Source: Sulfuricellaceae bacterium (GTDB lineage: Bacteria; Pseudomonadota; Gammaproteobacteria; Burkholderiales; Sulfuricellaceae). From it: a stretch of 64,000 nt of DNA. The stretch's first letter is position 1. Each line of letters begins with the position of its first letter. The stretch is from assembly GCA_041674485.1 (NCBI GenBank), contig JBAYVP010000002.1:9897-73896 (forward strand), in the 5' to 3' direction. Below the pieces are notes generated by a model. The model saw nothing but the letters and a program-made list of their open reading frames with translations, had not been told where the DNA came from and searched no databases. Made by a program: the position numbers and the translations under genes. Of the stretch, positions 2,863 through 23,251 are shown piece after piece.

Positions 2863-2884
2863 GTTCATGCGGGCTAACTGAATC

Positions 2885-3577: not shown

Positions 3578-3590
3578 CTCAAGTTTGGTA

Positions 3591-4913: not shown

Positions 4914-5103
4914 TCTCAACTTACAGGTTTTTTACTGCACATGTACCCCATCAAGATGGGGAAACTTTCGCGGCTTTAATGTATCTGTAAACCAACACTT
5001 AACTGAGTGTCAGCCTTGGCTTGGTTGCTCTCCTTCAGGCTTGGCTCTTCTTCCTGCAACCATGCACTCGTGCCTTCACACTATTTAAAACAAGGATAAT
5101 GCG

Positions 5104-6093: not shown

Positions 6094-6148
6094 TGCGGGC
6101 AGAGTACTGGAAATTGATCGGTATCTTGCTGTCAACGATAGGTAGAAT

Positions 6149-7669: not shown

Positions 7670-9127
7670 CTATTCAAGAGCCGCATCCATTGATTCCAGC
7701 GAATATGCAGTTTTTGCGCCCGACTGCTGCGCTTCCTCGCGCCGCTTTCTTTCAACGGAGGGCCAGCATTGCGCTCCCAGGATACGATCCGCCACGGCAT
7801 GCCCGCAGACCAGGCGATCGCGCACCGACACCCCGCCCCGGTAGTTGGCCTCGAGATGAAGGCTGGGAATATGTTGCAAACGCGCCGTGATTGCCTGCAT
7901 GCGCGCCTGGTAGGCGCCGTGATACGCGGGCAGCGCCTCGCAGTGCCTGTCGATGCGCACCATCTCCGGGTCGGATTTTAAATCCATGAGCGGGCGCAGT
8001 GTTCTGAATGTCTCATCCACGAGGCGTCCGTCGTCCCAATCCGCCACATTGGGAGCGCGCGCCCCACCGAGATAAGAGGTCAGCAGGACTTTACCCGGAG
8101 GTGCCCGATCGGGAAACAGGGCGCTCATCCACAGATTGCCCGTCAGAGTTCCACTTTCTCCTTTGGGCGCGAGGAACCCGGTGCCATCCAGCGGATGTCC
8201 CACCGCGTCGCGCGCCATCCCGGCATGCACGACATTCACCGGTGCGTAACCAATGCCACGCAACAATTCAGCCAACTCTTTGTCCAGCGGATTGACCAGT
8301 GCAGCAGCAGCAGGTGCGGGCGTTGCCACGATCACATGGCAGGCTGACACGGTGCGCTGCCCGTGTGGCGTTGCCGCTACAGCTTGCCAGCCCTCCCGCT
8401 CGCGCACCAGTTCTTGCGCGGTATGGCCGGTGCGCAAATTGATTCCGGGAGCCTGTGCCAGCGCCTCCACCAAGGTAGCCATGCCGCCACGAAAGGAAAA
8501 AGTGTCGGTAGTGCTGGCCGTGCTGCGGCGTAATACACGGTTAACCAGCACTCCCGCTCCGATGCTGCCGTAGCGCTGCTCCAAAGCCATCAGGCGCGGC
8601 AAAACGGCAGCGGCACTGGCCTGATCCGCATCTGCGGCCAGCGTCCCGGCAACGAAAGGCTCCATGGCTTTTTCCAGCACTTCACGGCCAAGACGACGCG
8701 TGATGAATTCGCTGACCGATTCTTCGCTCCGCCCGCTGGAGAAGATGAACGGTTCTGCCAGCAGGCGCAATTTGCCGCGCAGGCTCCACAAGGGTGAAAC
8801 CACCATGGAACCCAAACGCATGGGCAGTGCTTTCAGACGCCCCTTGTGCAACAGGTAACGGCGCGCCTCGGCGCCAGGCAAGCGGGCGGTTTTTGCCGAT
8901 TCCAGCCCGGCCTCGCGCATCAGCTCCGCCACTTCGGGACGGAAATTCAACACCATAGATGCGGCGCGTTCGGTGAGATAGCCGTCCTGCCGGGTGCTCA
9001 TGATCTTGCCGCCCGAGCGCTCGCTGGCCTCCCATACCTCTACCGAAAGGCCGCTGCGCGCCAGCCACCAGGCGGAAGCCAAGCCTGAAATACCGCCACC
9101 GATAATGAGTACGTCAACTTTATTCAT
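7670..9127 (-). CDS. FAD-dependent protoporphyrinogen/coproporphyrinogen oxidase-like protein (HemY/PPOX family)
   Basis: MNKVDVLIIGGGISGLASAWWLARSG...EASERSGGKI dinucleotide-binding motif at the N-terminus. Overall length and C-terminal GGVSVRD block are typical of HemY-type amine-oxidase-fold enzymes. ATG 9127 is preferred over GTG 9193 because it puts the GxGxxG motif at the N-terminus. Confidence 0.7.
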   Translation of the reverse strand: MNKVDVLIIGGGISGLASAWWLARSGLSVEVWEASERSGGKIMSTRQDGYLTERAASMVLNFRPEVAELMREAGLESAKTARLPGAEARRYLLHKGRLKALPMRLGSMVVSPLWSLRGKLRLLAEPFIFSSGRSEESVSEFITRRLGREVLEKAMEPFVAGTLAADADQASAAAVLPRLMALEQRYGSIGAGVLVNRVLRRSTASTTDTFSFRGGMATLVEALAQAPGINLRTGHTAQELVREREGWQAVAATPHGQRTVSACHVIVATPAPAAAALVNPLDKELAELLRGIGYAPVNVVHAGMARDAVGHPLDGTGFLAPKGESGTLTGNLWMSALFPDRAPPGKVLLTSYLGGARAPNVADWDDGRLVDETFRTLRPLMDLKSDPEMVRIDRHCEALPAYHGAYQARMQAITARLQHIPSLHLEANYRGGVSVRDRLVCGHAVADRILGAQCWPSVERKRREEAQQSGAKTAYSLESMDAALE

Positions 9128-9200
9128 CGCTATGCTGCTGACTTGTGTTTTATTCAATCTGGCGTAGCTGCTCAGGTCAAACGATTTGCTCACAGAACAA

Positions 9201-9264
9201 CCACAACGCCAGTCCCTTACCCATGGAAGTAGGGAAGGTGAAAAACTGCCGCACCTGAGTAGTT
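9201..9264. repeat. REP family R1, short form (CAACGCCAGTCCCTT..GGAAG..GGGAAGG..GCCGCACCTGAGTAGT)
   Basis: Shares the CAACGCCAGTCCCTT / GGGAAGG / CTGCCGC.CCTGAGTAGTT blocks with 28932-29124, 41546-41797 and 47275-47369. Confidence 0.7.
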
Positions 9265-9280
9265 ACAATCGGGCGGAATT

Positions 9281-11347
9281 TTACTTGTTTGCCTTGAGTT
9301 GCGCCTTCATTTTTTCGAGCAAATCCTGACCCAGCAGATCGCCGGGATTTTCCCGTGCAGCAACAAAATTTTTGATGGTATCAAAACGCTTGTCGGCTTC
9401 GGGATTGTCCTTGAGGCGCGGCACGCGATCGCGCGCAATCTCGTAGGCATCGAAGCTCAATTCCTGCATTCCGAACCCCTTCATGCGCTGCACCGCGCGC
9501 ATCATGGCGTTATTGCGGAAGCGCGTCAGGTCGCTGGAAGTAATGCGCGCCAAACCTTCCTTGCGCGCGTTGAATTCGGCGGCTTTTTTGATGCCCGCGC
9601 GGTTGAAGTCGGGCGCGGACAATACGCGCGCCAAGGCATCCTCGTCCCATTCCACGCCGCCGGTCAGTTGCGCGATGGCCGCCTCGACATCCACTCTCTC
9701 AACGGTGGCGGCGCGGCGTTTTTGGGTGAAGCTTTCTGCGGCACCTTCCAGAGCAGGCTCAACAAACATGCGCACCTGTGGCGCTTTTTCGGCTAGGAAC
9801 GCCGTGAGCATTTGATCAGATTCATCCGTCCACGAAAAACTGCGACCGGGTGGCTGTTCCGATTCCAGCCTGTCCAACAGCTTGATATTGACTTCCAGTC
9901 TGCCCTCGGAACGCGCGACATCTTCGGCAATCGCGCGCACCCCTTCCTGCAGGAAAGCGGGCATGGCCGCAAGGCGCTCGCGCGCCTGCTCGCTCCACGG
10001 CAACGTGGCAGCAGAAGCTTGGCCTGCCGCCGATGATGCGGCTTGCAGGTTTGCGTCTCCTGCTGCGCCAGATTTCATATCGGGTCGCGGCGGCCCGCCA
10101 TTGCCGAAGCGTTTGGCGGACAAAGTTGCCAAATGCTCTTCCGTCACCACATGCAAGCCAAGATCATGCACATAGCTTTCCGCGCGTTTCTTGACCATCT
10201 TGCGCAGGAAGGAGGGAACACGCGACAGGCGCTTCTCCGCCTCTTCACTCCAGGACAGCGTTTCAGTTTGCTCGGCCAGCGGCTCGATGACGGCGGCTCC
10301 CTCGGGTACATAAACGCACCAGGGATCGGTATCCATCAGGCTGTCGCCGAGGGCGAGGGGTCGCGCGCGGCAACCGCCGCACAATTTCCGGAATTCGCAA
10401 CTGCCGCACTTGCCTTGCAGCCTGGGATTGCGCAATGCCTGAAAGGTAGGCGATTGATTCCAGATGTCCCAAAATTTAGCGTCGCGGATGTTGCCTTCTT
10501 CATCGGGAATATACGGGCAGGCCGTCACGCCGCCTTCCGGGGTGATGCGGCAATAATGGATGCCGGCCAGACAACCGCCGCCCTCGTATCCGGCGGCACG
10601 GGTGAGCGTCGATTGCGGGTTGCGCTGATAGGCGATGCGCTTGTAATGGGGAGCGCAGCGGGCGCGGATCAGCAAATCCCGGCTCTGCTCTTGCGCCGCC
10701 ACCAATTGGTTGAGCACCCGCTCATAAGTGATGGGACTGATATCCGACATGGATTCGCCGCGACCGGTACACACCAGGAAGAACACGTTCAGCACCCGCG
10801 CCCCGGAAGCCCGAGCAAAATCTATCATGCCCGGCACTTCGTCGGCATTGGATTCGGTGACGGAGAAATGGATCTGGAAGGGCATGCCGTGGCGCTTGCA
10901 GGCCTCAATGCCCTGCATGGTTTTCTCCCACGCGCCCGACAACCCGCGGAAGGCATCGTGCTTTTCGGGGTCGAGAGAATCGACGCTGATACCTGCGCCC
11001 ATCGCGCCGGCAGCCTTCAGCGATTGCACGCGCTTATCGGTAAGCGCCACGCCGTTTGTCCCAACCACCATGGCAAGGCCGCGTCCGGTACCATGCGCTA
11101 CCAGTTCCTCCAGATCGCCACGCATCATCGGTTCACCGCCGGTGAGCACCACCATGGTTTCCGTGCTGCGTGCCGCAATGTCGTCCAGCAGGCTGCACAC
11201 CTCCACCGTGGTGAGCTCGTTCCTGTCGCCATGCTTCATGGTTTCCGCATCCATGTAGCAGTGGGCGCAGGCAAGATTACAGCGCTTGGTCAGATTGATG
11301 GCGAGCAGAAACAGGCCGTTTGCATCGGCGGTGCGAGATACATCCAT
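9281..11347 (-). CDS. Radical SAM/SPASM enzyme (NirJ/AhbD-like core) fused to three or four PCP_red-like (BchB C-terminal-like) domains
   Basis: CNLACAHCY (CxxxCxxC) and GGEPMMR. SPASM Cys cluster GGGCLAG...ACPY...GKCGSCEFRKLCGGCRARP. Then repeated W-S/T-x-E-A...VP-x-F modules (LSWSEEAEKRLSRVPSFLRKMVKK; LPWSEQARERLAAMPAFLQEGVR; FSWTDESDQML; VEWDEDALARVLSAPDFNRAGIKK). Start moved to ATG 11347, which overlaps the upstream stop (TAATG); the longer track ORF would overlap the upstream gene by 214 nt. Confidence 0.8.
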   Translation of the reverse strand: MDVSRTADANGLFLLAINLTKRCNLACAHCYMDAETMKHGDRNELTTVEVCSLLDDIAARSTETMVVLTGGEPMMRGDLEELVAHGTGRGLAMVVGTNGVALTDKRVQSLKAAGAMGAGISVDSLDPEKHDAFRGLSGAWEKTMQGIEACKRHGMPFQIHFSVTESNADEVPGMIDFARASGARVLNVFFLVCTGRGESMSDISPITYERVLNQLVAAQEQSRDLLIRARCAPHYKRIAYQRNPQSTLTRAAGYEGGGCLAGIHYCRITPEGGVTACPYIPDEEGNIRDAKFWDIWNQSPTFQALRNPRLQGKCGSCEFRKLCGGCRARPLALGDSLMDTDPWCVYVPEGAAVIEPLAEQTETLSWSEEAEKRLSRVPSFLRKMVKKRAESYVHDLGLHVVTEEHLATLSAKRFGNGGPPRPDMKSGAAGDANLQAASSAAGQASAATLPWSEQARERLAAMPAFLQEGVRAIAEDVARSEGRLEVNIKLLDRLESEQPPGRSFSWTDESDQMLTAFLAEKAPQVRMFVEPALEGAAESFTQKRRAATVERVDVEAAIAQLTGGVEWDEDALARVLSAPDFNRAGIKKAAEFNARKEGLARITSSDLTRFRNNAMMRAVQRMKGFGMQELSFDAYEIARDRVPRLKDNPEADKRFDTIKNFVAARENPGDLLGQDLLEKMKAQLKANK

Positions 11348-13170
11348 TATTGTCCCGCGTCTTGAGGGTTCCCGTCCTGGGAGTTCTGGGCTTTTTTGCC
11401 GAAGCCAAACGGGCAACCGCTCTTGGCAGCCGGCTCGCTTTTTCCCATCATGGTTTTTTCCATTTCGCCGCGCGCCTGCTTGAGGCCGTTTTCTGCCACG
11501 TCCAGAGTGACTTCGGCGTGGCCATTTTGCCGGGCAAAATTCTCGATGCTCTGCTTGCACCGGTCGCGCATGAAACCCTCAGGCACCCGCATCAGGCGCG
11601 CCAGCGCGGCGGCCTGCCAATGAATTTCGGATGAACCGGGTAGCCCCGCCGCCGCTGCGGGCTGGGCGCTATCCGGCGCGTCGGTGTCGAGGAACGATTT
11701 AATATGCTTGGCTTCCACCGCGTCACACTTTTCCTGACGCGCTTTCTTCTCGGCGCGCATACTGAGATTGCCGCGCACCGAAAGGTCTTCGACGGTGCGC
11801 AACAGCGCAACCGCCTCGTCGGACCAGCGCATGACCTCTTCCGCCGCTGGCTTGCGCTTCAATTCTCCCGCATCGTAGGCCGCGACGATTTCCCCCATAG
11901 CCTGCTCCGCATGATTCGGCATGAGCTGCGCGGTCGCTTCGTCCACAATCTTCTGGGTGATGACGGTGTGGCCATGTTCCTGCGCATAGCGCATGATGGC
12001 CATGCGCGCCATGTTGCGGACGAAGGAAGGCACCCGCTCCATCCGTGCTTCGGCCTCATGCGTCCAAGAGGTAGTGACGCCCGACACGACATCTATTTTC
12101 GGCTGGTATTCGCGCATGCTGAGCAAAATGGCGCAGTCCACATTTTCCAGCAAATGCTCGCTATTGCCGCCGATGTCGAGTTCATCATCGGCATGAATGC
12201 CCAACTTGCCGACGATCAGCAAGGAGGGCTTGATTTTTTTGACATACTTCTCGATGGCATCGTGAGGCTTGCCATCCAGCAGCTCGGTTTCTATTTCAAC
12301 GCCAAAATCCCCGGCGATGGATCGGGCGACAGCCAAATGGCCGTCATAGATTTTTGCCAACCCAGAGTCTATGATCTCTTCGTGCAGCTTTTCCTGATCC
12401 TTGAATTTGAATACCTTGCCTGCCTCTTCGGACAGCACGCCGGCAATCCGGTTAAAGGCAACATAGTGGTAATAGGGATCGAAGGCGGCAATAACCTTGA
12501 CCGGAACCTGCCAAGTTTTGCCTAGCGCCAGCCCGGTGAGCAAGCCACCGTACGACTTGGCTGAGCCGTCCACCGCGACGACTATCGGGCCTTTCTTGAT
12601 CGCGCGCTCGGGTTCCTTGATAACCAGCGTATCAATGGCCGAACGCCGCGCCACCCGTCGGCACACGGTACCCAACCGGCTCCCTTTTATCGCGCCTAGC
12701 CCTAGCGCTCCCATAATGAGCAGATCGTATTTTCCGGTATTCGTTTCCCGCGTAAGTTCGCGGTAATTTTTTCCTTCAAGCGAGCTGCGCTTGAAGTCGA
12801 TGCCAAGCCGTTCGCATTCGTTGGCAGCCTGATCGAGATAAGAATCGGTGATGATCGACAAGCCGCGTGTGATCAGGTCGTCATGCACATCCCGCTGCCG
12901 CTCCAACTCCTGTTCTTGCCGGAACTGTTCTGGCAGGCCGCCTTCCATCTGGCGAAAACGCATGTCATGCAGCTTGGCGGCATAGACATGGCTACCGGTA
13001 ATCACTGGCGTATCCACCAGACCCGCCAGTTCGGTGGCGCTCTGCATAGCGGCATTGGCATGGTCTGATGAATCCAGTGCCACCAGAATACGTTGATAAA
13101 AACCGGTGTCTAGCGATGGGTGAGACTCTTCGGCAACGGCCAAAGAAACTTGGGACGTCATGTGATGCAC
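11347..13170 (-). CDS. Tandem universal-stress-protein (USP) domains fused to three PCP_red-like domains
   Basis: Two USP-like halves (ILVALDSSDHANAAM...LLIMGALG; IVVAVDGSAKSYGGL...SLLIVGKLG). Then TSWTHEAEARMERVPSFVRNMARMAI, MRWSDEAVALLRTVEDL and IHWQAAALARLMRVPEGFMRDRCK modules. Confidence 0.75.
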   Translation of the reverse strand: MHHMTSQVSLAVAEESHPSLDTGFYQRILVALDSSDHANAAMQSATELAGLVDTPVITGSHVYAAKLHDMRFRQMEGGLPEQFRQEQELERQRDVHDDLITRGLSIITDSYLDQAANECERLGIDFKRSSLEGKNYRELTRETNTGKYDLLIMGALGLGAIKGSRLGTVCRRVARRSAIDTLVIKEPERAIKKGPIVVAVDGSAKSYGGLLTGLALGKTWQVPVKVIAAFDPYYHYVAFNRIAGVLSEEAGKVFKFKDQEKLHEEIIDSGLAKIYDGHLAVARSIAGDFGVEIETELLDGKPHDAIEKYVKKIKPSLLIVGKLGIHADDELDIGGNSEHLLENVDCAILLSMREYQPKIDVVSGVTTSWTHEAEARMERVPSFVRNMARMAIMRYAQEHGHTVITQKIVDEATAQLMPNHAEQAMGEIVAAYDAGELKRKPAAEEVMRWSDEAVALLRTVEDLSVRGNLSMRAEKKARQEKCDAVEAKHIKSFLDTDAPDSAQPAAAAGLPGSSEIHWQAAALARLMRVPEGFMRDRCKQSIENFARQNGHAEVTLDVAENGLKQARGEMEKTMMGKSEPAAKSGCPFGFGKKAQNSQDGNPQDAGQ

Positions 13171-13283
13171 CTCTTTGCTTTAATCTTTGGGAACACTGAT
13201 ACGCAGAATCGCGAATTATAGGGCAAATTCAGATGCCGGATATTTGAACAAGAATATTATTTTTTGCCGCCACAAAACAAGAA

Positions 13284-13320
13284 AGGTATATCCCTGGAAT
13301 TTCTTCCGCAGGATATACCT
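13284..13320 (-). terminator. Probable rho-independent terminator after the NosZ-like/cytochrome c unit
   Basis: Perfect 10 bp inverted repeat AGGTATATCC-N17-GGATATACCT, 88 nt downstream of the 13409 stop. It is followed on the minus strand by UUCUUGUUUUGUGG. Confidence 0.5.
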
Positions 13321-13408
13321 CGCTCAAACTATCTCTTGCTGCTTCTGTATTTCCAGCCTACTTACACACCATAACCTTCAGGTGAGCTTTCGGCTTGAAA
13401 AATATTTA

Positions 13409-14371
13409 TTACTTAACCTTCACTGCGACTTCTGTCGGCTTCTTTCTGTTGCCGCCATCTACATATCCGCCGCCGACCAGTTCTGAACCAGGAGCACGCC
13501 CGGTCATTTCGGATTCAATCGTCTCTTGCAACTCCTTGAAATCTGCGCTCTTCGAAGCATTGAGTGCATCTACATCGCCCTTGATCGGCTTAAAGGTAGA
13601 TTTAGGGTTAAGGTATGCTTCCACGCTGGTGGGTGGCGGTACATCCTGCATCGCGCGGATAAAGGCAATAATGTCCCAAATGTCCTGATCCTGCAGCACG
13701 TTGCCCCAATTAGGCATGGACGAAGACAGCGATACTTGCTCGCCGCCACCCTTGATCACCGCATACAACTCAAGGTTGGTCTTCTTGTTCATGTAGTCGC
13801 CACGAGTCAATGTTCTTGGGCGCGGGTTCAATTCGGAAGCACTGGGGCCGTCACCATGCATCAACCAACCGTGGCAGGCGATACAGTAGGAGTAGTAGTA
13901 AGTCTTGCCATGGTTCGGGTCAGCACCAGCAACCAGCGTTGCGCCAAATTTTGGCGACCATTGGTTCGTCCACTGATCGTACACGCTCTTATCCGTCACA
14001 CCATCGGAAGCAGGAGCTTTTACGCGATCCCACAATTCTGTCTTGAGACCGCCTTTAGCAGCTCCGCCATAACCGCTGTCCGTTTTGAAGGTCTTGGTGT
14101 CGGAGTTGCTGCGCTTGCCTACACCCGTCAAATAATCGAACGGTGCGATACCATAGGTACTGCCGCCTTTACCTTGCTCCATGTCATCGCCTTCTTTCAG
14201 AAACGCGGCCGATGCTTTTTTCGCTTCATCTTCAGTTACGGTAGGGCACTCTACCTTTTGCCCGCCGGCGGTACAACGCTTCTCCGGTGCAGCAAAAGAT
14301 GACGCACTTCCCCACATCATGCCCAAACTTGTCACTGCGATCAGGCCTATTTTCAACTTGGCATTCTTCAT
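13409..14371 (-). CDS. Exported 320 aa monohaem c-type cytochrome
   Basis: Signal peptide MKNAKLKIGLIAVTSLGMMWGSASSFA. One CIACHGWLMHGDGP motif and a distal SSMPNW. RBS AGAGGGAG lies upstream. Sits directly downstream of the NosZ-like gene. Confidence 0.75.
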   Translation of the reverse strand: MKNAKLKIGLIAVTSLGMMWGSASSFAAPEKRCTAGGQKVECPTVTEDEAKKASAAFLKEGDDMEQGKGGSTYGIAPFDYLTGVGKRSNSDTKTFKTDSGYGGAAKGGLKTELWDRVKAPASDGVTDKSVYDQWTNQWSPKFGATLVAGADPNHGKTYYYSYCIACHGWLMHGDGPSASELNPRPRTLTRGDYMNKKTNLELYAVIKGGGEQVSLSSSMPNWGNVLQDQDIWDIIAFIRAMQDVPPPTSVEAYLNPKSTFKPIKGDVDALNASKSADFKELQETIESEMTGRAPGSELVGGGYVDGGNRKKPTEVAVKVK

Positions 14372-14449
14372 TTTTTAATTCTCCCTCTTTAGACCACCCC
14401 CGCAAGGGGATGGCCGGTTATTCATCCGTATCTGGGCGCAAAGAGTCAA

Positions 14450-16207
14450 TTACAGACCCTTCACACGCTCCGCTACAGTAAGCTGACCCTCTTCCAACAA
14501 ACCTGGCAGATGTTGCGCCTTAGCGTAATCACCCACAGCTAGGTTAGATGGCCCAGCCTTAGGATCGTCAACGAAGAACGCCGCTCTCATTTCCAGATGC
14601 AACGGTCCGCAGAAGTGCGTACAGAAGATTTCATATTCCCCTGCAATATCCGCCGTAAACTCATGCACTGCGGTTACACCGCGTGGCAAGTCCATGTTGG
14701 AACGCTGACCGTAAGGACCATAAATCGTCAAACCCATGGTGACGTCAGGATTCTTGGTGATGCCAGCCGCCTTGTCGATGTTGGTCGCAAACAACCGCAC
14801 CTTGTCGCCCTTGTTCACCCTGACCTGACGGGGAATGTAGCCGTAGCTGAAGGCCTTCATGTGAATTTCCTTCACGCCATCAACCAGCTTGACGCCCGGT
14901 GGTGTGGTTTCCTTGGGAATGAAGTAGCGCTTCGATAATGCGCGATGTGGAGGATCCAGCAGATCGGTTCTGCCATTGATCAGCCCACCCTGTTCCGCCT
15001 CGCCCTTGGTCCAATCCTTGACCAGATAGGACATCAGACCCTTGGCGTTATGCGGCTCACCATCCACCGGCATAATCTTCAAAGTCTTGCCGTAGGTTGG
15101 GCTCTTTTCGCGCGCATCCCACATCTCGAAGTTAACCGGGAATACGATACCGGTTGGGCTGAACAGGCCGGTTGAGAACTTGTTCAACGCCATCACATAG
15201 GAGTTATCCGGGGAGATGGAAATATGACCCGTTCTATAGTGGGTTGGGATTTCGTCAACCACTTCAAGTTTTTTCAGGTCGATCTTCACGTTAGCGTCCG
15301 CCACGAAGCAGCTCTCATAGGCGTACTTGGAAGTCAGGCCATCCGGGCTGTCTATGCCAGCACGGTAGGAACCGCCATCCTTGTTATATACGTCCATGAC
15401 CGAATGCAGAGGACCCGCGCAAGTCGGTAGAACCTTCTTGACTGCCAATTTCTGTGTGTCGATGATGGTCATGGTCGCGGAGAGCTTATCGCTCACCAGC
15501 ACCAAAGTGCTTTCAGGAATGACGTCGGTGCCGTGTGGGTTCTTGCCCACTGGTATTTCCTTGATCAGCTTGAATGGGCTGGTGGAAAACACGCCCACGG
15601 TAGAGTGGTAGTAGTTACCCGCAAAAACATATTTACCATCCCGGCTGGCGTCGATATAGTCCGGCGCGCTTGGGGAAGGACCCCAGTCGATCACTTCGGT
15701 CTTGCCCGTCTTGATCTCGACCTTGGCCATCTTGCCGCTATACTCACCCGTTCCAAACAGATGCTTGCCATCGGTGCTCATTGCAATATGGTGAACGCCA
15801 AACGGGAAAGGCAGCGCGATGACTCTGGCCAAATAGCCAGTTTGAATATCGAACTCGCAAATCGTGTTGGCACCCTTATCGTTCAGGTAAACGTATTTGC
15901 CGTCCGGCGTACCGTTCTTGTTGCCCTTGTTGCTTCCACCAAATGAAATTTCGTGCGTATCCACGCCGCAATCGATATGGCGATAGGTTTTGAAACTGGG
16001 AATACCGATGATCGCCATCTTGCCGTCCACACCGCCGGACGAGTACAACAGCATCGGATCAATGGTTGGCGTATCCTTGCCATCCGGAACCGCAACCTGC
16101 CACCCCGGTATGACTTGCGATTTATCCGCAGCCGCATTCGCTGTGCTAGCCATCAAGCAACTCATTGAAAGAGCGCTCATCATTAAAAATTTCGTTTTGT
16201 TTTGCAT
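14450..16207 (-). CDS. Divergent NosZ-like protein: 7-bladed Cu beta-propeller plus C-terminal CuA-type cupredoxin domain, Sec-type signal
   Basis: Start ATG 16207 after AAGGGGAG. Signal MQNKTKFLMMSALSMSCLMASTANA has no RR motif. NosZ blocks: YSSGGVDGKMAIIGIPSF, DGKYVYLNDKGAN, KNPHG, GPLHS, THYRTGH, GEPHN. CuA loop is CTHFCGPLHLEM (C-x3-C-x3-H-x2-M). It deviates at the HH pair (DTHE) and the first CuA His (DVTMGL). Confidence 0.75.
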   Translation of the reverse strand: MQNKTKFLMMSALSMSCLMASTANAAADKSQVIPGWQVAVPDGKDTPTIDPMLLYSSGGVDGKMAIIGIPSFKTYRHIDCGVDTHEISFGGSNKGNKNGTPDGKYVYLNDKGANTICEFDIQTGYLARVIALPFPFGVHHIAMSTDGKHLFGTGEYSGKMAKVEIKTGKTEVIDWGPSPSAPDYIDASRDGKYVFAGNYYHSTVGVFSTSPFKLIKEIPVGKNPHGTDVIPESTLVLVSDKLSATMTIIDTQKLAVKKVLPTCAGPLHSVMDVYNKDGGSYRAGIDSPDGLTSKYAYESCFVADANVKIDLKKLEVVDEIPTHYRTGHISISPDNSYVMALNKFSTGLFSPTGIVFPVNFEMWDAREKSPTYGKTLKIMPVDGEPHNAKGLMSYLVKDWTKGEAEQGGLINGRTDLLDPPHRALSKRYFIPKETTPPGVKLVDGVKEIHMKAFSYGYIPRQVRVNKGDKVRLFATNIDKAAGITKNPDVTMGLTIYGPYGQRSNMDLPRGVTAVHEFTADIAGEYEIFCTHFCGPLHLEMRAAFFVDDPKAGPSNLAVGDYAKAQHLPGLLEEGQLTVAERVKGL

Positions 16208-16633
16208 TATTACTCCCCTTGTTCGCAACTGCTTAATTAATAGGATAGCGTAATGTTTACGCCGACCTTCAAACCAACACATTTACTTAGCTGCCACTAC
16301 GATTGCTCTTACTCAACACTGTACTGCATTCACTCAAAACTGCCAGCTTCACCATAAACCTTGCAACATCTAACCATGCGACATATTGTCGCTGCGGCAT
16401 TTTGTCGCATCATGCCCAAAATGAATACTATCGTCAAGAGAGAGGTGAAAAAATTTACGTTAATGCGGGGTACAAAGAAAAAAGGCGATATTTTGCACAT
16501 AACGTGATGAACAAGGCGGGAGCAAAGCACATGCCGAGTGGCAGTTTCTCATCAAGCCCCATGAGAGATAGTGACGTTTAACCCCCGCTACCAAACCATC
16601 CCAATCCGCCAAATTCCACAAACACAACCTATC

Positions 16634-16867
16634 TCACTGCGTTCCACTGCCTCCAGCCTGAATGCCCTGTCCGTCAGACACCTGTTTCCCGCTGCGAACC
16701 GCACCTATGGCGAACACGCAAGCCCCAAATAAAATGAGAAAAATGAATTTTTCATAAGCGGGCAACCCGCCGCGCAGGTTCAGCAAGATATCCAGCACAC
16801 CCAAGGCCATGATGATAAAGCCGAACAATTTGGTCTTTACACCGCGCCTGACGTATTCATTTTCCAT
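16634..16867 (-). CDS. Small two-TM membrane protein
   Basis: ATG 16867 lies 6 nt after AAGGAG. Sequence MENEYVRRGVKTKLFGFIIMALGVLDILL...FIFLILFGACVFAIGAV. Confidence 0.45.
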   Translation of the reverse strand: MENEYVRRGVKTKLFGFIIMALGVLDILLNLRGGLPAYEKFIFLILFGACVFAIGAVRSGKQVSDGQGIQAGGSGTQ

Positions 16868-17027
16868 AGCACACTCCTTGCGGATAAACAGGTTGCGAGT
16901 TTCTTGGCAATGCCGCTCGTCCAACTTCGCCGCTGCGATTATTTCACTGTAAGCAAATAAGTGACGTAATCACCTTTTTCTTGTACTGACTGCATCCTGC
17001 TAGATGCGCCTCACAAAATCAAACACC

Positions 17028-17135
17028 GTCATTCTGACCCCTCGACAAGCCTAGGACAGGCTCAGGACAGGCTGACCTACGACCAGGCCGGAATCCAGTC
17101 TTATCGACAAACTGGACACCGGCCTCGCTGGCGTA
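17028..17135. repeat. REP-like palindromic element (GGCCGGAATCCAG...CTGGACACCGGCC type)
   Basis: Imperfect inverted repeat 17086-17098 / 17112-17124, preceded by a direct repeat ACAGGCTCAGGACAGGCT. It lies in the intergenic gap. Confidence 0.5.
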
Positions 17136-17157
17136 ACAATTTCAGAGGCCCCCTGAA

Positions 17158-18690
17158 TCAGGCCGCAGGTTTCTTGGCAGCGCTACGCGACCACCACAAC
17201 AGCCCTGCCACAAACAGTCCCGCGACCAGCAACGCCAGAACAATAGGCTTGGAACCGGTAGCCGGCTTCAACAACAGCCAATACCAGGTAGTCATGGTGT
17301 GCTTTGAGCCTTTCTCACTATTATTGCTGCCATCCCAAGCGGCAAAAGCAACCGGAATGAATTTACCCTCGACAAACTGAATATCCTTCTCGGGTGCGGA
17401 AGTAGTGAGCGGCCTGGTTATCAGAGCCTTCCAGGTACCATCGCTATAAATCGCCTTGGCCTTGAGCCCGACCCCGGTCGCATCGCGTTTCTCAATCGCC
17501 TTAAAACCTTTGCTGGTCATCAGACCGAGAGTTTCTGCCGCCTCAGTAGTGCCGCTCTTCCAGTGCCAGATGTTGACCGGATGCGCGTCATCTCCCATGC
17601 CGAAATAAGGCTTTTGCATTTCCTTGGGAATCACGACGGGCAGTTGCACCGCGACGCCGTCTTCCGCAATCGGCGCATCGGCCAGCTTACCCGCGCTATC
17701 ATCCCCCGGAATGCTCTTGGTGCGGTCATCCCACTCCAGCAGCATCGCAATCGACTTGCTGTTATACATCGCGCGCACCGTAATGGAGTCATTGGAAGGC
17801 GTGAAATAACGCTCCTCGCCGATGATTTGCGGAACCAGAGCGAAAGTGGTCGGGGTAGACTTTTCCCAGCGTTCATCTTCCGGCGTAGCGGGCAATTCGC
17901 CCTCCACCATGTCCGCCTTGACCACGGTGTTTTCCGCATTAACCAGTTTATCGGTCTTGGCTAATGACGCCACATAGTTAGCTACATGCCAAATTTCTTC
18001 GGTCGTGAGCTTCTTTTTACTCGCTGGATCGATGAAGGATGGCATCGCAGTACCAGGGATACCGGTAGAAACCCGCGTAAAGATGTCCTTCGGATCATTG
18101 CTGCCACGGAAAGTCCAAGGCTTGGTCAGATTGCGCGGCCAGGTACGCTCGCCGTTATCTCCTTTGAGCCGCTTGCTGGCGCTGCCCTTGCCCGACTTGC
18201 CATGACATTCCACGCAGCGGTCGCCATCCTCGAACAACTTCTTGCCCTTCTCGATACTCTCGGCAGAGCTTTTGACCTGCGAGCCGAAGTCGACCTGCTT
18301 GGCAGGAGGCTTGTCGAAACCTGCAAAGGTTTTGACATAAGCCACCAAGTCCCACATATCCTGCTCGTTCAGCAAGTCGCTCCAACCCGGCATGGCGGTG
18401 CCCGGCATACCATCGCGTATCATGCGATAGATGTCGTCATCATTGGGCGTCATATCTGCAAAATCGGATGTTTTGATCTTGTAGTTGCCGGAAGTGAAAT
18501 CCCGTGGCGGCGGATTGAGACGGTCTTTGGCCGCACCGTCACCCGCACCCTCCGCACCGTGACACCAGGTGCAGCGTTTGTCATAGATTATCTTGCCCTT
18601 GTCGGCTGCACCCGGTTTCGCCGAGGCTGACCCCGCCATAAACAGCGCAGCACAAAAGGTTAGGAAAGCCAGTTTTTTTACAGAACTCAT
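17158..18690 (-). CDS. Dihaem cytochrome c fused to an EB_dh (EbdC/NxrC/DdhC-type haem-b) domain and a C-terminal TM anchor
   Basis: Signal MSSVKKLAFLTFCAALFMAGSASA (ATG 18690). CTWCHG and CVECHG motifs. EB_dh-like block ITVRAMYNSKSIAMLLEWDDRT...DGVAVQLP...YFGMGDDAHPVNIWHWKSG. C-terminal helix IVLALLVAGLFVAGLLWW. Confidence 0.75.
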   Translation of the reverse strand: MSSVKKLAFLTFCAALFMAGSASAKPGAADKGKIIYDKRCTWCHGAEGAGDGAAKDRLNPPPRDFTSGNYKIKTSDFADMTPNDDDIYRMIRDGMPGTAMPGWSDLLNEQDMWDLVAYVKTFAGFDKPPAKQVDFGSQVKSSAESIEKGKKLFEDGDRCVECHGKSGKGSASKRLKGDNGERTWPRNLTKPWTFRGSNDPKDIFTRVSTGIPGTAMPSFIDPASKKKLTTEEIWHVANYVASLAKTDKLVNAENTVVKADMVEGELPATPEDERWEKSTPTTFALVPQIIGEERYFTPSNDSITVRAMYNSKSIAMLLEWDDRTKSIPGDDSAGKLADAPIAEDGVAVQLPVVIPKEMQKPYFGMGDDAHPVNIWHWKSGTTEAAETLGLMTSKGFKAIEKRDATGVGLKAKAIYSDGTWKALITRPLTTSAPEKDIQFVEGKFIPVAFAAWDGSNNSEKGSKHTMTTWYWLLLKPATGSKPIVLALLVAGLFVAGLLWWSRSAAKKPAA

Positions 18691-18709
18691 AATTATTCCC
18701 AATCGCAGA

Positions 18710-19492
18710 TTATTCATTTGCCCACGACCTTGGCCGTCTGCCCGTGTAGTCATACAGGTACAGGATAACTTTCCATATCTCATCCTCGGTCAAGAAGTTC
18801 TGCCAGATGGGCATGGATGAAATCCACGGCGCTGCCTCAGCAGGCAAGCCCGGGCCGCCGGTGGCGATACGCCAGAACAGGAAAGATTCCTGCAACTGCG
18901 CGATGGTGCCCACGTCCTGGAAATTGAGCGGCGTGGGGTTCAGACCCGATGCATAAGGTCCCTTGCCATCCAATTTGTCGCCGTGGCAATACTGGCAGTT
19001 TTGAATGTAAACATTGCCGCCCGCCTTGACTAGCTCGGCAAACTTTGCCAGATCTTCCTTCTCGAGTTTGCGATAGGGATTTTCCAGCTTGGTCAGGTCA
19101 AAGCTCTTGCCATACGCCTTAAACTTGTTGGGCGGCGCGGGGTGGATGGTGCGCAGCTCCACCGGTGCCTCGAAACTGGGCATCAGACTCGAGTAGGTGT
19201 AGTAGCCAGCCAGCAGCGGCACAATCACAAATACCACATTGCGCAGCATTTTCTTGGAGGGATCCTCGACCAAAGCCTTGATGGGACCCACCAGCTCCTG
19301 TGCCCCTTCCTCAGTGAAAGTAAATACCATCACAACCCCGGCCACCACGAACACCATATACATGGTAAGCAGGCTCTTGGGGATCAACTGTCCCAGAATC
19401 ACGTCGAAAACCAGGATGAAGCTGAAAAATACCCCCAGTATGACCAGGGCGAGTTGCAACAAACGGGGAATGCGTCTTTTCTGTGTTGTCAT
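18710..19492 (-). CDS. Membrane-bound monohaem cytochrome c (three N-terminal TM helices)
   Basis: TM helices LLQLALVILGVFFSFILVF, MYMVFVVAGVVMVFTF and VVFVIVPLLAGYY, then NCQYCHGDKLDGKGP and a distal SSMPIW. Confidence 0.75.
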   Translation of the reverse strand: MTTQKRRIPRLLQLALVILGVFFSFILVFDVILGQLIPKSLLTMYMVFVVAGVVMVFTFTEEGAQELVGPIKALVEDPSKKMLRNVVFVIVPLLAGYYTYSSLMPSFEAPVELRTIHPAPPNKFKAYGKSFDLTKLENPYRKLEKEDLAKFAELVKAGGNVYIQNCQYCHGDKLDGKGPYASGLNPTPLNFQDVGTIAQLQESFLFWRIATGGPGLPAEAAPWISSMPIWQNFLTEDEIWKVILYLYDYTGRRPRSWANE

Positions 19493-19494
19493 GA

Positions 19495-20304
19495 TTATTT
19501 CAACCCTGCCATATAATTAACCAGCAACTCAAGCTCTTGCGCTTTCAATTGCTCCCCATAGGTCTTAGGCATCATGCCCCCGGCAAATCCTTTTGCGATA
19601 ACCGCATCGGGATCGAGCAGCGCCTGGCGCAAATATTCCTTGCCCTGCTTTGCACCAATCTTGGACAGATCGGGCCCCAGCGCGCCAGTCTGATCCAGAA
19701 TTTTATGGCACATGCCACAGGTATACTTGGCGATGACCTCTTCAGCCGTTTTTAGCGGAGCGGCTTCTTCTGCCTTTGGCGCCTCTGCACCAGCGGCGGG
19801 CATGGCTGGAATAACGACCGTCACTTCGGCACCACCCGAGTCCTGGAGATAGGCGATAACAGCGGCAACTTCGGCCTCGTTCAGACCGATCCCACCACCC
19901 GTCACGTCCGGCATCGGGCTTTCGGTATCGTTGGTTCCCGCTTTACCAAATCCAGAAACCACATAGGCCGAAGGCTTAACCATCGCCTCGTGGATATACT
20001 CCTCGACCGTTTTTGCCGTACCTTTGTAATTGGGGCTCTTCATATGCTCATCTGCCTTCGCTCCGATCGTGTCGAGCATTGGCGCCCGGCCCATCGAGTT
20101 ATGGCACAGCGTACAAGTCCCCTTGCCGTTATATATCTTGCCGCCCAGCGCGATGAACTGATCCATAGTCATCGCGCCGAGATCCAGCTTCTCCTCTACG
20201 GGGGGCGGCGCGGGTTTAATCGTCGGGATGCCGAAATTCGAATACCCCCAGAATGCACCCACCATCAAGATACTGAAAATGGAAACCTTAAGAAAATTGG
20301 TCAT
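19495..20304 (-). CDS. Dihaem c-type cytochrome, membrane-anchored or exported
   Basis: CTLCHN and CGMCHK motifs. ATG 20304 forms an ATGA overlap with the stop of the bd-like gene (20301-20303). The longer TTG start at 20319 is less likely. Confidence 0.8.
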   Translation of the reverse strand: MTNFLKVSIFSILMVGAFWGYSNFGIPTIKPAPPPVEEKLDLGAMTMDQFIALGGKIYNGKGTCTLCHNSMGRAPMLDTIGAKADEHMKSPNYKGTAKTVEEYIHEAMVKPSAYVVSGFGKAGTNDTESPMPDVTGGGIGLNEAEVAAVIAYLQDSGGAEVTVVIPAMPAAGAEAPKAEEAAPLKTAEEVIAKYTCGMCHKILDQTGALGPDLSKIGAKQGKEYLRQALLDPDAVIAKGFAGGMMPKTYGEQLKAQELELLVNYMAGLK

Positions 20305-22226
20305 GCTTGTTCCTTCCAATAACCTTTTGCAACCACATGTTTGCCACTGATCGTGCTCAACCAGAACACAAAGATGACCATGGCCATGAATATGAGCGTA
20401 CCAGTCGATACGATGTTGGCCGCATAACCCAGATCCGGCGTAAAGGCATCCGGAGAATTATCGCGGAATACGTTGGACACATGCCAGTGCTGGCGGATGG
20501 CAGAACGGACATAGCCCATCAGCCCCATCAGCCAGGTGAAGGACACCGCCAGCAGAAACAGCGCGTACTGCGAACGGTTGGGCATACGCCCCCAGTGCAG
20601 CGGCGCCACTTCCTTCGCACCCTTGTACATGAACGAGTCAAGCACCAAGCTGAGAATGATGACAACCAAGGTGGTCAGAACCTGCGGTATGGAGGCCGCA
20701 ACCTTGTACACCGTATTGGTGAAATAACCGTAATAGATACCCAGCACCAGGATGTTGAGTGCGGCCGTAACAAACAGGGCGATCTGCGCCGCGTTGCCTG
20801 CTTTGACCCAGGAAACGGTAGCAATTTTATTGGCGCGCCGGTAATACAGGAAACTCAAGAAAGTGCCCAAAAGCAAAAAGTTCACCGCCGTGTTTTTGGC
20901 CGGCATGATGCCGAACACCCCCAGATATTGGTGGTACGGTCCGCCCAAGCTCTTGAGTTCTGAATTGGTCAGCACCAGCGTGTGCGGCGTGAACCACACC
21001 AGGAAAGCAGCCACCAGGACAATGGCGATATATTTGATCTTGGGGTTGTAGCGATAAGCGCCATCGCTGCGCCCTATACCACACCAGAGATAATAGTTGG
21101 CCGACAGGAACAGGGCGCCGATCAGTACGGCCTGGATGATGAACAGCCAGGCAAACGCGCCGCCCATCAGGGTGATACCCATTTGCTGGCTATAGGCATA
21201 TATTTCTGCGGTGAGATAGTAGCCCGCGAAAGGCAACGGCAACAGCGCCGCTATCGCGATGAAGTTGGCGTTGTAACCCATCCAGTCATAGTGGGCGCGC
21301 TCTTTTGCATTTTTGGCGCTAAGAAACTTGAAGGCGGCATAGGCACCCACAACCGAACCGCCATAAGCCACGTTGGCGACCACCCGGTGTATGTTGATCG
21401 GATTCCACAGGAAGTTGTGAAGCGCAGCCCAGGTATCGCCATGGAACACACCCGCCGGATCCAGGCCCGCCGGGCTCATCATGAAAGTCGTCCATGCGTT
21501 GGCCAGGAACATCAGCAAGCAACCGACCGCATTGAGCAGCAAACCAAAAGTCAGGTGTACCCACTTCTTGTTGCCACCCTGGAGCCAGTGCCAGCCATAA
21601 TAATAAATATACAAGACCGCGCTCTCGGCAAAGAACAGCAGCGCATACGCCCACATGCTTTCCTTGAAGACTGCGGCCATATATTTGAATAAATCCGGGT
21701 AGAACAGGATCAGACCGAAGGATAGCAAGCCGCCCAGAAGCGCGGTGAGCGAGTAGGCGGTGATACTGACCTTGATGAACTCGTAAGCCATGTTATCATA
21801 GCGCTCATCCCGTGTCCACATACCGATGGCCTCGATGATGAACACAAACATCGGTACCGCCACGACAAACGCACCAAACCACAGATGCAACTGCGCTACC
21901 AGCCATACTGCCACCCGTGAATTCACCCCTTGAATCTTGGGGTAATCCGCCTCGGTCAATTTTGGCACGGGGATGGAAACCCCCGCCGCCGCATCTGGAG
22001 CGGCATCTGCCTTGGCCGCAGCAGCAGCGTGTGCAGGTGCGGGTGCGGCGGGTGCCGCTGCGGATGCTGTCGCTGCGGCAGGCGCTTCAGCAGCCGCAGG
22101 CGCGACCGCAGACGCTGCTGCCTCGGATGCGTTCGCGACAGGCGTGAAGGCAGGCAGCATAAACATGGCGAAAACCGCCAATAAAAATGCCCCGCCGATT
22201 AATCTTATATTATTTCTTGTTAGCAA
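20301..22226 (-). CDS. Cytochrome bd subunit I-like (CydA-like, 'bd-like oxidase') polytopic membrane protein with an Ala/Pro-rich N-terminal linker
   Basis: Collinear with CydA: VAQLHLWFGAFVVAVPMF (His19 region), FFAESAVLYIYYYGW (FLESTF..FFFGW), VHLTFGLLLNAVGCLLMFLANAWTTFMMSP, NIHRVVANVAYGG (His186 region). No cydB follows. N-terminal low-complexity stretch ASEAAASAVAPAAAEAPAAATASAAAPAAPAPAHAAAAAKADAAPDAAAG. Confidence 0.8.
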   Translation of the reverse strand: MLTRNNIRLIGGAFLLAVFAMFMLPAFTPVANASEAAASAVAPAAAEAPAAATASAAAPAAPAPAHAAAAAKADAAPDAAAGVSIPVPKLTEADYPKIQGVNSRVAVWLVAQLHLWFGAFVVAVPMFVFIIEAIGMWTRDERYDNMAYEFIKVSITAYSLTALLGGLLSFGLILFYPDLFKYMAAVFKESMWAYALLFFAESAVLYIYYYGWHWLQGGNKKWVHLTFGLLLNAVGCLLMFLANAWTTFMMSPAGLDPAGVFHGDTWAALHNFLWNPINIHRVVANVAYGGSVVGAYAAFKFLSAKNAKERAHYDWMGYNANFIAIAALLPLPFAGYYLTAEIYAYSQQMGITLMGGAFAWLFIIQAVLIGALFLSANYYLWCGIGRSDGAYRYNPKIKYIAIVLVAAFLVWFTPHTLVLTNSELKSLGGPYHQYLGVFGIMPAKNTAVNFLLLGTFLSFLYYRRANKIATVSWVKAGNAAQIALFVTAALNILVLGIYYGYFTNTVYKVAASIPQVLTTLVVIILSLVLDSFMYKGAKEVAPLHWGRMPNRSQYALFLLAVSFTWLMGLMGYVRSAIRQHWHVSNVFRDNSPDAFTPDLGYAANIVSTGTLIFMAMVIFVFWLSTISGKHVVAKGYWKEQA

Positions 22227-22339
22227 GATTTACTCCCGATTTTTTCGATATACCGTATTAGAAAGGCCAGTCCGGTTCCAGGCACGCTTGCACCATAAAC
22301 ATTAAGGAAGCACCTCCTCAAGCGAAGGCAACCAATCAC

Positions 22340-22456
22340 TTAATGGTTAAACGTCAGCGTCAACCCCTGAAGATGCATCATGGCGAAATCCAAACCAAAA
22401 AATACGGCGCCAAAGACAACAAACGCACCGACGAATGGTAAAAAATAATCTTTCAT
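22340..22456 (-). CDS. Possible 38 aa single-TM peptide between the 63 aa ORF and the bd-like gene
   Basis: MKDYFLPFVGAFVVFGAVFFGLDFAMMHLQGLTLTFNH, read by hand from the minus strand (too short for the ORF track). It fills the gap just upstream of the bd-like gene. There is no homology evidence. Confidence 0.3.
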   Translation of the reverse strand: MKDYFLPFVGAFVVFGAVFFGLDFAMMHLQGLTLTFNH

Positions 22457-22460
22457 GTCG

Positions 22461-22652
22461 TTACGCCCTCAAAAACCACGTAAAAAAAACAATCAATGCA
22501 ATCAGGGTCGCCACAAAAAAAGCCGGCCCCGCCCAAGGGTACTTCGATTTTTCACTCTCTTCTGGTATCGGATTATGGTAGAACCCGGTGGCATCGATAA
22601 ACTTGTCGTTCGGATTCTCGCCGTCCACCTCATGTGTTGCATTTGCGCTCAT
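22461..22652 (-). CDS. Small single-TM protein at the head of the bd-like operon
   Basis: 63 aa: hydrophilic N-terminus, then AGPAFFVATLIALIVFFTWFL. Confidence 0.4.
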   Translation of the reverse strand: MSANATHEVDGENPNDKFIDATGFYHNPIPEESEKSKYPWAGPAFFVATLIALIVFFTWFLRA

Positions 22653-22704
22653 ACTCCACCCCTTCTATCAGCGATTTACCTGCTTGTTGCGGACACAAAA
22701 CCAC

Positions 22705-22732
22705 CCCAAGGGGAAGAAACCTCCCCCTTGGG
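22705..22732 (-). terminator. Rho-independent terminator separating the cytochrome c pair from the bd-like operon
   Basis: CCCAAGGGG-N10-CCCCTTGGG (9 bp perfect stem), followed on the minus strand by GUGGUUUUGUGU. Confidence 0.55.
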
Positions 22733-22876
22733 ATATCGTCTAGCTTCTTATAAGACAAAGTAATACAAGATCAGGCAACTGAAGATGACATTTATCATCA
22801 TCCCGGAAAAAATAAGCCCGTCAGCAAGATATTTTTTGTTCAGGTATTTTTTCATTCAGGCCACGCGTCCTCTATC

Positions 22877-23227: not shown

Positions 23228-23251
23228 GAGTTTATCCTCCATTCGTTCGCA

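Follow-up and report, generated by a model that had tools for sequence, protein, structure and literature searches.

A clade III lactonase-type nitrous-oxide reductase gene with a methionine-type CuA motif and non-canonical neighbouring genes in a Gallionella-like betaproteobacterium

Does a gene that resembles nosZ block for block, but differs from it at two copper-ligand positions and has no recognisable nos accessory genes beside it, encode a nitrous-oxide (N2O) reductase that matures without the Nos machinery, or a NosZ-fold enzyme acting on a different substrate? This question is raised by a gene at 14450-16207 in a stretch of 64,000 nucleotides (the window, meaning the whole of the DNA analysed) from an assembly labelled Sulfuricellaceae bacterium (GCA_041674485.1, contig JBAYVP010000002.1, positions 9,897 to 73,896), and it was put by a first-pass annotation made from the sequence alone. 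Here, we report that the gene belongs to a lineage already published as clade III, the lactonase-type nitrous-oxide reductases (L-NosZ; He et al., Nature 2025;646:152), and that its odd ligands and the absent nos genes are traits of this family, not signs of a new enzyme. The reading as a nitrous-oxide reductase lineage without the canonical Nos machinery was essentially correct, in that it matches the published clade. The host is a Gallionella-like iron-oxidising betaproteobacterium in which, with a probability of about 0.8, the protein would function as a periplasmic N2O reductase.

14450-16207, minus strand: L-nosZ, clade III lactonase-type nitrous-oxide reductase; 585 amino acids (aa), with a Sec-type signal, a seven-bladed propeller and a C-terminal cupredoxin domain

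The minus-strand open reading frame (ORF), annotated in the first pass as Sec-type without a twin arginine, was recovered at these coordinates. A strong ribosome-binding site (RBS), AAGGGGAG, lies directly 5' of the ATG at 16207, and this start is favoured over the ATG at 16282 because the lengths of close homologues (582-594 aa) fit the 585-aa product. The N-terminus, MQNKTKFLMMSALSMSCLMASTANA followed by AAD, combines lysines, a hydrophobic core and an AxA site, contains no RR pair, and, judged by eye, reads as a Sec signal. Each of the NosZ-like blocks quoted from this frame (YSSGGVDGKMAIIGIPSF, DGKYVYLNDKGANTICEFDI, GVHHIAM, KNPHG, AGPLHSVMD, THYRTGHIS, DGEPHNAKG, CTHFCGPLHLEM, DTHE and DVTMGL) is present in the translation. 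MAFFT alignment additionally identified an 18-aa insertion in the proteobacterial subclade to which the query belongs and a C-terminal extension of about 40 aa in the aligned sequences that carry Met at the first CuA position (Met-type L-NosZ).

By hidden Markov model (HMM) score, sequence motifs, fold and phylogeny, the protein belongs to the L-NosZ family. The profile HMMs for Sec-dependent (clade II; TIGR04246) and Tat-dependent (clade I; TIGR04244) NosZ, a comparison that had been suggested, recognise the query weakly, at 152.6 and 92.6 bits, respectively, with a cut-off of 625 in both cases. The NCBIfam model named "clade III lactonase-type nitrous-oxide reductase" (NF052460), which has a cut-off of 700, gives 750.8 bits and is covered over its entire length (1-480 of 480). 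Among Pfam families, YNCE (65.9 bits) and Lactonase (42.7 bits) exceed their cut-offs, nos_propeller scores 30.8 bits, and Cupredoxin_1 falls short at 19.7 bits (cut-off 27). The filter of the discovery study, as quoted in a preprint, consists of CX2FCX3HXEM, DXHH or GXHH, PHG, GPLH, EPH and a length of 400-900 aa; the query contains C529-TH-F-C533-GPL-H537-L-E-M540, G137-V-H-H, P224-H-G, G265-P-L-H and E384-P-H in 585 aa and thus passes it whole. When the L-NosZ profile was aligned with a canonical NosZ profile using hhalign, the probability was 100% and the E-value 3.8e-74 over 494 columns, a likeness that, at the profile level, is far above chance.

The predicted structure bears out the NosZ-like fold that the first-pass annotation had proposed to check. 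The AlphaFold2 model, computed from an alignment of 43 sequences (mean predicted local distance difference test score 85.1, predicted template-modelling score 0.86), consists of strand-rich blades followed by a beta-sandwich, and the top 50 Foldseek matches in the PDB are all N2O reductases, with E-values of about 1e-32 over approximately 630 columns. In a neighbour-joining tree (a distance method only; 200 bootstraps, Kimura distances), clade III is monophyletic with respect to the canonical NosZ sequences with 98% support, and the query falls inside the Met-type clade with 100% support, nested among metagenome-assembled genomes (MAGs) of Gallionella. The L-NosZ sequences with His at the first CuA position (His-type) are basal within clade III; these P0123-like proteins include the top score on NF052460, 914 bits, and differ in this residue from the query.

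Among species representatives, the closest is a MAG of Gallionella sp., with an L-NosZ 98% identical to the query; a protein identical to the query is also encoded on an ENA metagenome contig and in a Logan assembly, and one labelled Burkholderiales (P0024) is 81% identical. Genes of this kind occur in about 20 species-level MAGs of Gallionella and Nitrosomonadales; a pangenome study of 103 genomes describes Gallionellaceae as lacking nosZ. We compared 80 genome loci, all from MAGs that are GTDB species representatives, with hosts among the Gallionellaceae/Nitrosomonadales, Burkholderiales, Zetaproteobacteria, Magnetococcales, Rhodospirillaceae, various Gammaproteobacteria, MAGs labelled Deltaproteobacteria, Nitrospirota and Nitrospinota. 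At three loci (L010, L055 and L011), Gallionella-type L-nosZ genes (89-91% identical) lie on contigs that public MAGs assign to Candidatus Moraniibacteriota, Patescibacteria and Thiothrix, most likely through errors in binning.

The copper ligands were mapped from Pseudomonas stutzeri NosZ, in which the CuZ ligands are H129, H130, H178, H326, H382, H433 and H494 (PMC8179356); the canonical CuA ligands are a His, a Cys, a backbone carbonyl, a Cys, a His and a Met (PMC8179356, PMC11573801). HMMER alignment to solved structures places H178, H326, H382, H433 and H494 at query H139, H225, H268, H328 and H386, and H583, the first CuA His, at M491, whereas the H129-H130 pair aligns to H85-E86 with both MAFFT and hhalign. 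Six of the seven canonical CuZ histidines are kept, the equivalent of H130 being E86, and the CuA set retains C529, C533, H537 and M540. Because these mappings put E86 and M491 at the positions in question, the two ligand changes named in the first-pass annotation (a CHHPH pair that reads DTHE, with one His only, and a first CuA His replaced by Met in DVTMGL) are correct; the notion that they are oddities of this particular gene is not, both being lineage traits among the 214 L-NosZ sequences tabulated.

In the GVHH motif, the residue that follows H139 is H140, where canonical enzymes have HG, so that seven candidate CuZ histidines are still on offer (H85, H139, H140, H225, H268, H328 and H386); the candidate CuA ligands are M491, C529, C533, H537 and M540. 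The published GXHH alternative, the sole support on this point, suggests that H140 may bind copper, one His having moved from blade 1 to blade 2. Residues K454, E492 and F621, proposed as the conduit from CuA to CuZ (PMC11573801), correspond in the HMMER alignment to K343, E384 and F532 and are conserved.

This arrangement (H85, E86, H139, H140, H225, H268, H328 and H386; M491, C529, C533, H537 and M540) is invariant in the query and 120 database proteins with at least 67% identity. A second search, seeded with P0123, recovered the His-type group (P0123, P0270-P0282 and P0131), which keeps the canonical CuA His, together with 33 further proteins that have Met. At the 80 genome loci, Met is present in each sequence that covers the CuA site, and the Nitrospinota have Asn, not Glu, at position 86. 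Across the tabulated set, 214 of 214 sequences have Glu or Asn where the canonical HH pair has its second His, and the adjoining GxHH is family-wide, whereas the first CuA His is Met in 199 of the 214, from Proteobacteria, Desulfobacterota-like MAGs, Nitrospirota and Nitrospinota, with His confined to the small basal group. A replacement of the CuA His unique to the query or to Gallionella was accordingly rejected, given the 33 further proteins and the 80 loci with Met.

Several relatives have lost ligands, unlike the query. P0121 (1139 aa) lacks the GxHH pair, the His of EPH and the entire CuA loop and carries a C-terminal fusion of about 580 aa of unknown type, whereas P0127 and P0142 have a complete CuA site and miss three and all of the CuZ histidines, respectively. 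Furthermore, P0282, a His-type L-NosZ of 644 aa from a Chloroflexi MAG, has a C-terminal c-type cytochrome domain (precomputed Pfam PF13442 and PF00034) and, by its domain content, appears to join donor and reductase in a single polypeptide.

The immediate surroundings of L-nosZ comprise the following features.

13265-13325 (about), minus strand: intrinsic-terminator-like hairpin with a U-rich tail; 13-bp stem, folding free energy -26.8 kcal/mol, z -3.77
13409-14371, minus strand: monohaem cytochrome c, 320 aa; single CxxCH at residue 163, Pfam Cytochrome_CBB3 and Cytochrom_C
16208-16633, minus strand: untranslated gap of 426 nt upstream of L-nosZ, with one sigma-70-like site at 16437-16409 and a strong RBS
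16634-16867, minus strand: two-helix membrane protein, 77 aa, with no family match in Pfam or NCBIfam

The first-pass description of these flanks, with a 320-aa monohaem cytochrome c and a strong hairpin on the 3' side and a small membrane protein and a leader of about 430 bp on the 5' side, agrees with these features. L-nosZ and the cytochrome c gene are co-transcribed as a two-gene unit ending in the terminator-like hairpin, and the cytochrome is a probable electron donor to CuA. Its orthologues (at least 45% identity) are present at 54 of the 80 loci, or 54 of the 69 left once the Nitrospinota-type group is set aside, in every case on the same strand as L-nosZ and in 34 cases directly downstream of it. 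The 77-aa membrane protein has orthologues at 16 loci, all in Gallionella-like or other proteobacterial groups. A simple terminator scan did not pick up the hairpin at 13265-13325, probably because its loop and stem rules are unsuited to an interrupted stem; direct RNA folding recovered it. Rfam returned no matches at E<=1 across 13000-17300, and the 426-nt leader is thus without a known RNA element. Past the stop codon of L-nosZ, and ahead of the cytochrome c RBS, lies a GC-rich hairpin, GGCCAUCCCC-UUGC-GGGGGUGGUC (14388-14412, minus strand; z -2.2), which has no U-tract and may be an mRNA-stability or attenuation element.

The statement that nos accessory genes are absent stands in one part and needs amending in another. 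Models of NosR, NosD, NosF, NosY, NosL and NosX had no matches among the window ORFs of at least 110 aa judged likely genes, and nosB/G/H/C-type neighbours were likewise not matched among the window ORFs scanned; however, a different conserved gene set is present in and next to the window.

1-204, plus strand: 3' end of a gene with an FGE-sulfatase domain
400-1593, plus strand: fused cytochrome b6/subunit IV/haem c protein, 397 aa; Pfam Cytochrome_B, ExtP-like and b6-like in NCBIfam, CNSCH at residue 352
1697-6670, plus strand: clade III accessory module of six genes, identified by Pfam and NCBIfam matches and conserved synteny
1697-2239, plus strand: lipoprotein (module)
2239-2862, plus strand: cytochrome b6-like protein (module)
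2885-3577, plus strand: subunit-IV-like protein with a PEWY motif and a C-terminal CxxCH haem c (module)
3585-4913, plus strand: Vgb-lyase/NHL-type beta-propeller protein, 442 aa (module)
5104-6093, plus strand: second Vgb-lyase/NHL-type beta-propeller protein (module)
6149-6670, plus strand: small monohaem c (module)
27500-33831, plus strand: candidate copper/thiol maturation set, identified by Pfam/NCBIfam scans and synteny
27500-28432 and 29202-30044, plus strand: two unknown proteins (maturation set)
28429-28875, plus strand: CcmH-like protein
30034-31069, plus strand: two TlpA/ResA-like thioredoxins
31069-31773, plus strand: CcdA/DsbD_TM-like protein
31996-32682, plus strand: Sco1
32679-33176, plus strand: PCuAC
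33295-33831, plus strand: third thioredoxin

This non-canonical gene set co-occurs with L-nosZ across phyla. In lineages ranging from the Proteobacteria to the Nitrospinota, the 1697-6670 module lies no more than 10 kb from L-nosZ; of its genes, those for cytochrome b and subunit IV are also present at a His-type locus (L006). Sets of the 27500-33831 type, which include the Sco1 and PCuAC genes already noticed in the first pass, are found no more than 10 kb from L-nosZ in MAGs of zeta-, alpha-, gamma- and deltaproteobacteria, and in one Rhodospirillales MAG the set next to L-nosZ is joined by a Csp copper-storage protein. On the same metagenome contig (L088, with identical window genes; window coordinate = L088 coordinate - 9601), a GldA/GldF/GldG-like ABC-2 transporter and a DUF4340 gene lie 0.9-5.1 kb past the left window edge, and GldAFG-type ABC sets were found within 10 kb of L-nosZ at no fewer than 22 of the loci fetched. 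The best NCBIfam models for the ABC-2 genes are GldA (319.7 bits), GldF (150.3 bits) and GldG (90.8 bits), all under their cut-offs, so that the label GldAFG-type is used; an identification of the transporter as NosFY was rejected, the best models being Gld and not Nos. Going by synteny and domain content, the 320-aa cytochrome c and the 1697-6670 module would serve electron delivery, the 27500-33831 set would serve the maturation of CuA and of thiols, and the GldAFG-type transporter and the propeller proteins may possibly handle sulfur or copper.

Some details of these genes are recorded here in their own right. The fused protein at 400-1593 is a paralogue of the split module at 2239-3577; both units have PEWY-like motifs and a C-terminal CxxCH, their nearest NCBIfam model is ExtP, from a selenite/tellurite reduction operon, and no Rieske protein was found near either. 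Between its signal peptide and the propeller (residues ~40-75), the 442-aa protein contains a His/Met-rich stretch, QDQHDHGNAKTPVMPTDPMSGHGHGNHQTH, that resembles a copper-binding tail; as a conserved copper-binding feature it was rejected, since it is absent in the orthologues with a readable N-terminus (the closest Gallionella-type loci are cut there). The FGE-sulfatase-domain protein is 243 aa long when complete (L088 9074-9805), its gene lies between those of the ABC transporter and cytochrome b, and homologues occur near L-nosZ at five Nitrospinota-type and four other loci. NirV, a protein of the FGE family, is encoded alongside copper nitrite reductases.

Upstream of L-nosZ, a respiratory cluster was identified by Pfam and NCBIfam matches.

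17158-23905, minus strand: respiratory cluster
17158-18690, minus strand: dihaem c and EB_dh haem b fusion
18710-19492, 19495-20304, 22877-23227 and 23252-23905, minus strand: four c-type cytochromes
20301-22226, minus strand: CydA-only bd-like oxidase, 641 aa; weak Cyt_bd_oxida_I match, 59 bits

A bd-like oxidase operon thus indeed stands beside L-nosZ, as had been noted, and no CydB is present in the cluster. The cluster reads as a co-located terminal-reductase island; counterparts with 70-85% identity occur in Zetaproteobacteria, Magnetococcales and Sedimenticola, and we take its oxidase to resemble the bd-like candidate terminal oxidases of Nitrospira. Of the 80 loci compared, 23 have a bd-like gene no farther than 10 kb from L-nosZ (8 Gallionella-like, 14 other proteobacterial, 1 of the Delta/Nitrospiria type and none of the 11 of the Nitrospinota type). 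On this count it is a frequent neighbour and no universal partner, and an obligate partnership was rejected.

On the opposite side, directly downstream of the L-nosZ unit, a haem-biosynthesis-like trio occupies 7670-13161 on the minus strand. Its members are a protoporphyrinogen oxidase, which scores 238.9 bits on TIGR00562 (cut-off 97.85), and two unusual fusions, an AhbD/NirJ-like radical SAM/SPASM protein with three PCP_red domains and a Usp protein with two. Orthologues of these members lie within 10 kb of L-nosZ at 22-29 of the 55 proteobacterial loci, with Gallionella-like, Burkholderiales and some zetaproteobacterial MAGs among them. Farther away, the window encodes two YcgR-like PilZ proteins (33842-35456) and a region of flagellar genes (38891-55109) with fliS, fliD, flaG, a 998-aa TPR protein, sugar-modification genes, an unusually long flagellin of 925 aa (47985-50762) and an Rpn-family nuclease/transposase-like gene (46274-47227).

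How might such a protein work? As the mechanism is proposed here, the L-NosZ apoprotein would be exported via Sec, and Sco1, PCuAC, the TlpA-like thioredoxins and the CcdA-like reductant channel would assemble CuA, with CuA1 in an unusual Cys2/Met2 environment (M491 and M540) and CuA2 bound by His537 and a backbone carbonyl. A tetranuclear copper-sulfide centre of the CuZ type would be held by seven histidines, six canonical and one, H140, shifted from blade 1 to blade 2; candidates to stand in for NosDFY/NosL are the conserved ABC transporter of the GldAFG type and the two beta-propeller proteins. Electrons would pass from quinol through the Rieske-less b6/subunit-IV-haem-c module, the co-transcribed cytochrome c, or both, to CuA, and from there along the K343/E384/F532 conduit to CuZ, where N2O would be reduced to N2. 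In work that cites He et al. (Nature 2025;646:152), clade III NosZ is described as actively reducing N2O, as inhibited by acetylene, and as lacking the canonical accessory genes, with cytochrome and transporter genes at the flanks.

Several observations weigh against the protein being a periplasmic N2O reductase. Foldseek superposition of the model yields a TM-score of only about 0.50 and a root-mean-square deviation of about 16 A, presumably owing to domain orientation, a monomer model being compared with a domain-swapped dimer. In P. stutzeri NosZ, the H130A substitution abolishes CuZ assembly (PMC8179356), so that Glu at this position requires H140 as a true substitute. CuZ requires sulfide, yet NosDFY-homologous sulfur delivery was not found in the scans of the window, and the roles given to the accessory genes are based on synteny. 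Finally, N2O reduction by any Met-type member was not found in the literature surveyed, outside which the study of He et al. (2025) stands. Beyond the single protein, we raise as a tentative proposal, possible but less than probable, that the Met-type clade (199 of 214 sequences) is a biochemically distinct N2O reductase, with an all-sulfur Cys2Met2 CuA1 devoid of the gating His and a non-Nos maturation system (GldAFG-type ABC transporter, two Vgb-lyase-like propellers, Sco1, PCuAC and TlpA-like proteins), that would act as an N2O sink for Gallionellaceae, Zetaproteobacteria and Nitrospinota fed by high-potential cytochrome c chains. No published characterisation of a Cys2Met2 CuA site was found in the literature surveyed, and the canonical CuA His, the flipping His, has been proposed to gate electron and proton transfer.

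The same features could instead indicate that the Met-type clade has kept a NosZ-like fold for other chemistry, acting on O2, NO, or sulfur or iron species. Its CuA ligand set is unlike that of every solved N2O reductase, the canonical gating His being missing, L-nosZ often adjoins the bd-like oxidase cluster, direct activity data for a Met-type member were not found in the literature surveyed, and such chemistry would suit microaerophilic, iron-oxidising and nitrite-oxidising hosts, among them Gallionellaceae, Zetaproteobacteria, Magnetococcales and Nitrospinota. Nevertheless, neither the seven candidate CuZ histidines nor the conduit residues vary, the clade is nested in a family described as N2O-reducing, the equivalog model is passed, and the bd-like cluster is close by at the 23 loci only, never at those of the Nitrospinota type; we therefore regard a change of chemistry as unlikely. 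For the different substrate raised in the first-pass annotation, the sequence taken by itself argues neither way. The proximity of the CydA-only oxidase and its many c-type cytochromes, seen in several lineages, would also fit a CuA-bearing electron-entry subunit of that oxidase in place of an independent reductase. This reading is very improbable, given that L-nosZ comes with a promoter-like region and a terminator of its own, occurs in Alphaproteobacteria and Nitrospinota with no oxidase within 10 kb, and keeps a complete CuZ-type ligand set.

That the gene is an ordinary, divergent-looking clade II nosZ with a nos cluster elsewhere in the genome was named in the first-pass annotation as an outcome that would refute its reading, and it was not borne out. 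The Sec-type signal would agree with it, and one published clade III MAG also carries nosDFLYX (PMC11033732), but the TIGR04246 score is far below its cut-off, the 98% split sets clade III apart from canonical NosZ, and the equivalents of H130 and H583 are replaced; at the level of the protein sequence this alternative is refuted, and we give it almost no credence. Equally hard to credit is a decayed, non-catalytic relic of NosZ: degenerate relatives such as the P0121 fusion, P0127 and P0142 do exist, but the query keeps all candidate ligands in an intact ORF with an RBS and a terminator, and the sites are conserved in more than 200 homologues. The reading as a clade III N2O reductase is thus the one retained.

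Set beside known systems, the query is the same as published clade III L-NosZ (NF052460; He et al., Nature 2025;646:152) at the family level, including GXHH in place of DXHH, the lactonase/YNCE-type propeller and the cupredoxin domain, and its locus resembles those of clade III MAGs for which the available accounts report no canonical accessory genes and adjoining cytochrome and transporter genes. With canonical NosZ of clades I and II (TIGR04244 and TIGR04246; PDB 3SBP, 1FWX, 1QNI and 5I5M), it has in common the two-domain architecture, the Cys-x3-Cys-x3-His-x2-Met loop of CuA and six of seven CuZ histidines at homologous positions; it differs in its low identity (~18-30%), the lack of a Tat signal, Glu for H130, an extra His after the H178 equivalent, Met for H583, and the absence of nosRDFYLX and nosB/G/H from the window. 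Lactonase-domain nosZ-like genes had been noticed, with their function left open, in a study of groundwater Nitrospirota (PMC11033732, 2024), which counts a Burkholderiales MAG in the clade; these genes belong to the same clade as the query, and the nosDFLYX genes of one MAG in that study have no counterpart in the window. The complete cupredoxin/CuA domain of the query distinguishes it from thiocyanate dehydrogenase, for which no structure appeared among the top 50 Foldseek matches in the PDB (a dedicated HMM was not used). Thiocyanate dehydrogenase is a NosZ-like propeller with a trinuclear copper site and no cupredoxin domain.

A gene that looks strikingly like a new NosZ therefore belongs, as an ordinary member, to a family that received its name in 2025, and NF052460 identifies it as such. 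For the biology of the host lineage, the consequence is that iron-oxidisers, if their L-NosZ is active, could be N2O sinks, including Gallionellaceae, previously reported without nosZ. For the family, the replacement of the flipping CuA His by Met in 199 of 214 sequences amounts to a natural experiment on the proposed His gate, and the conserved non-Nos gene set provides testable candidates for the building of a CuZ-type centre without NosDFYL.

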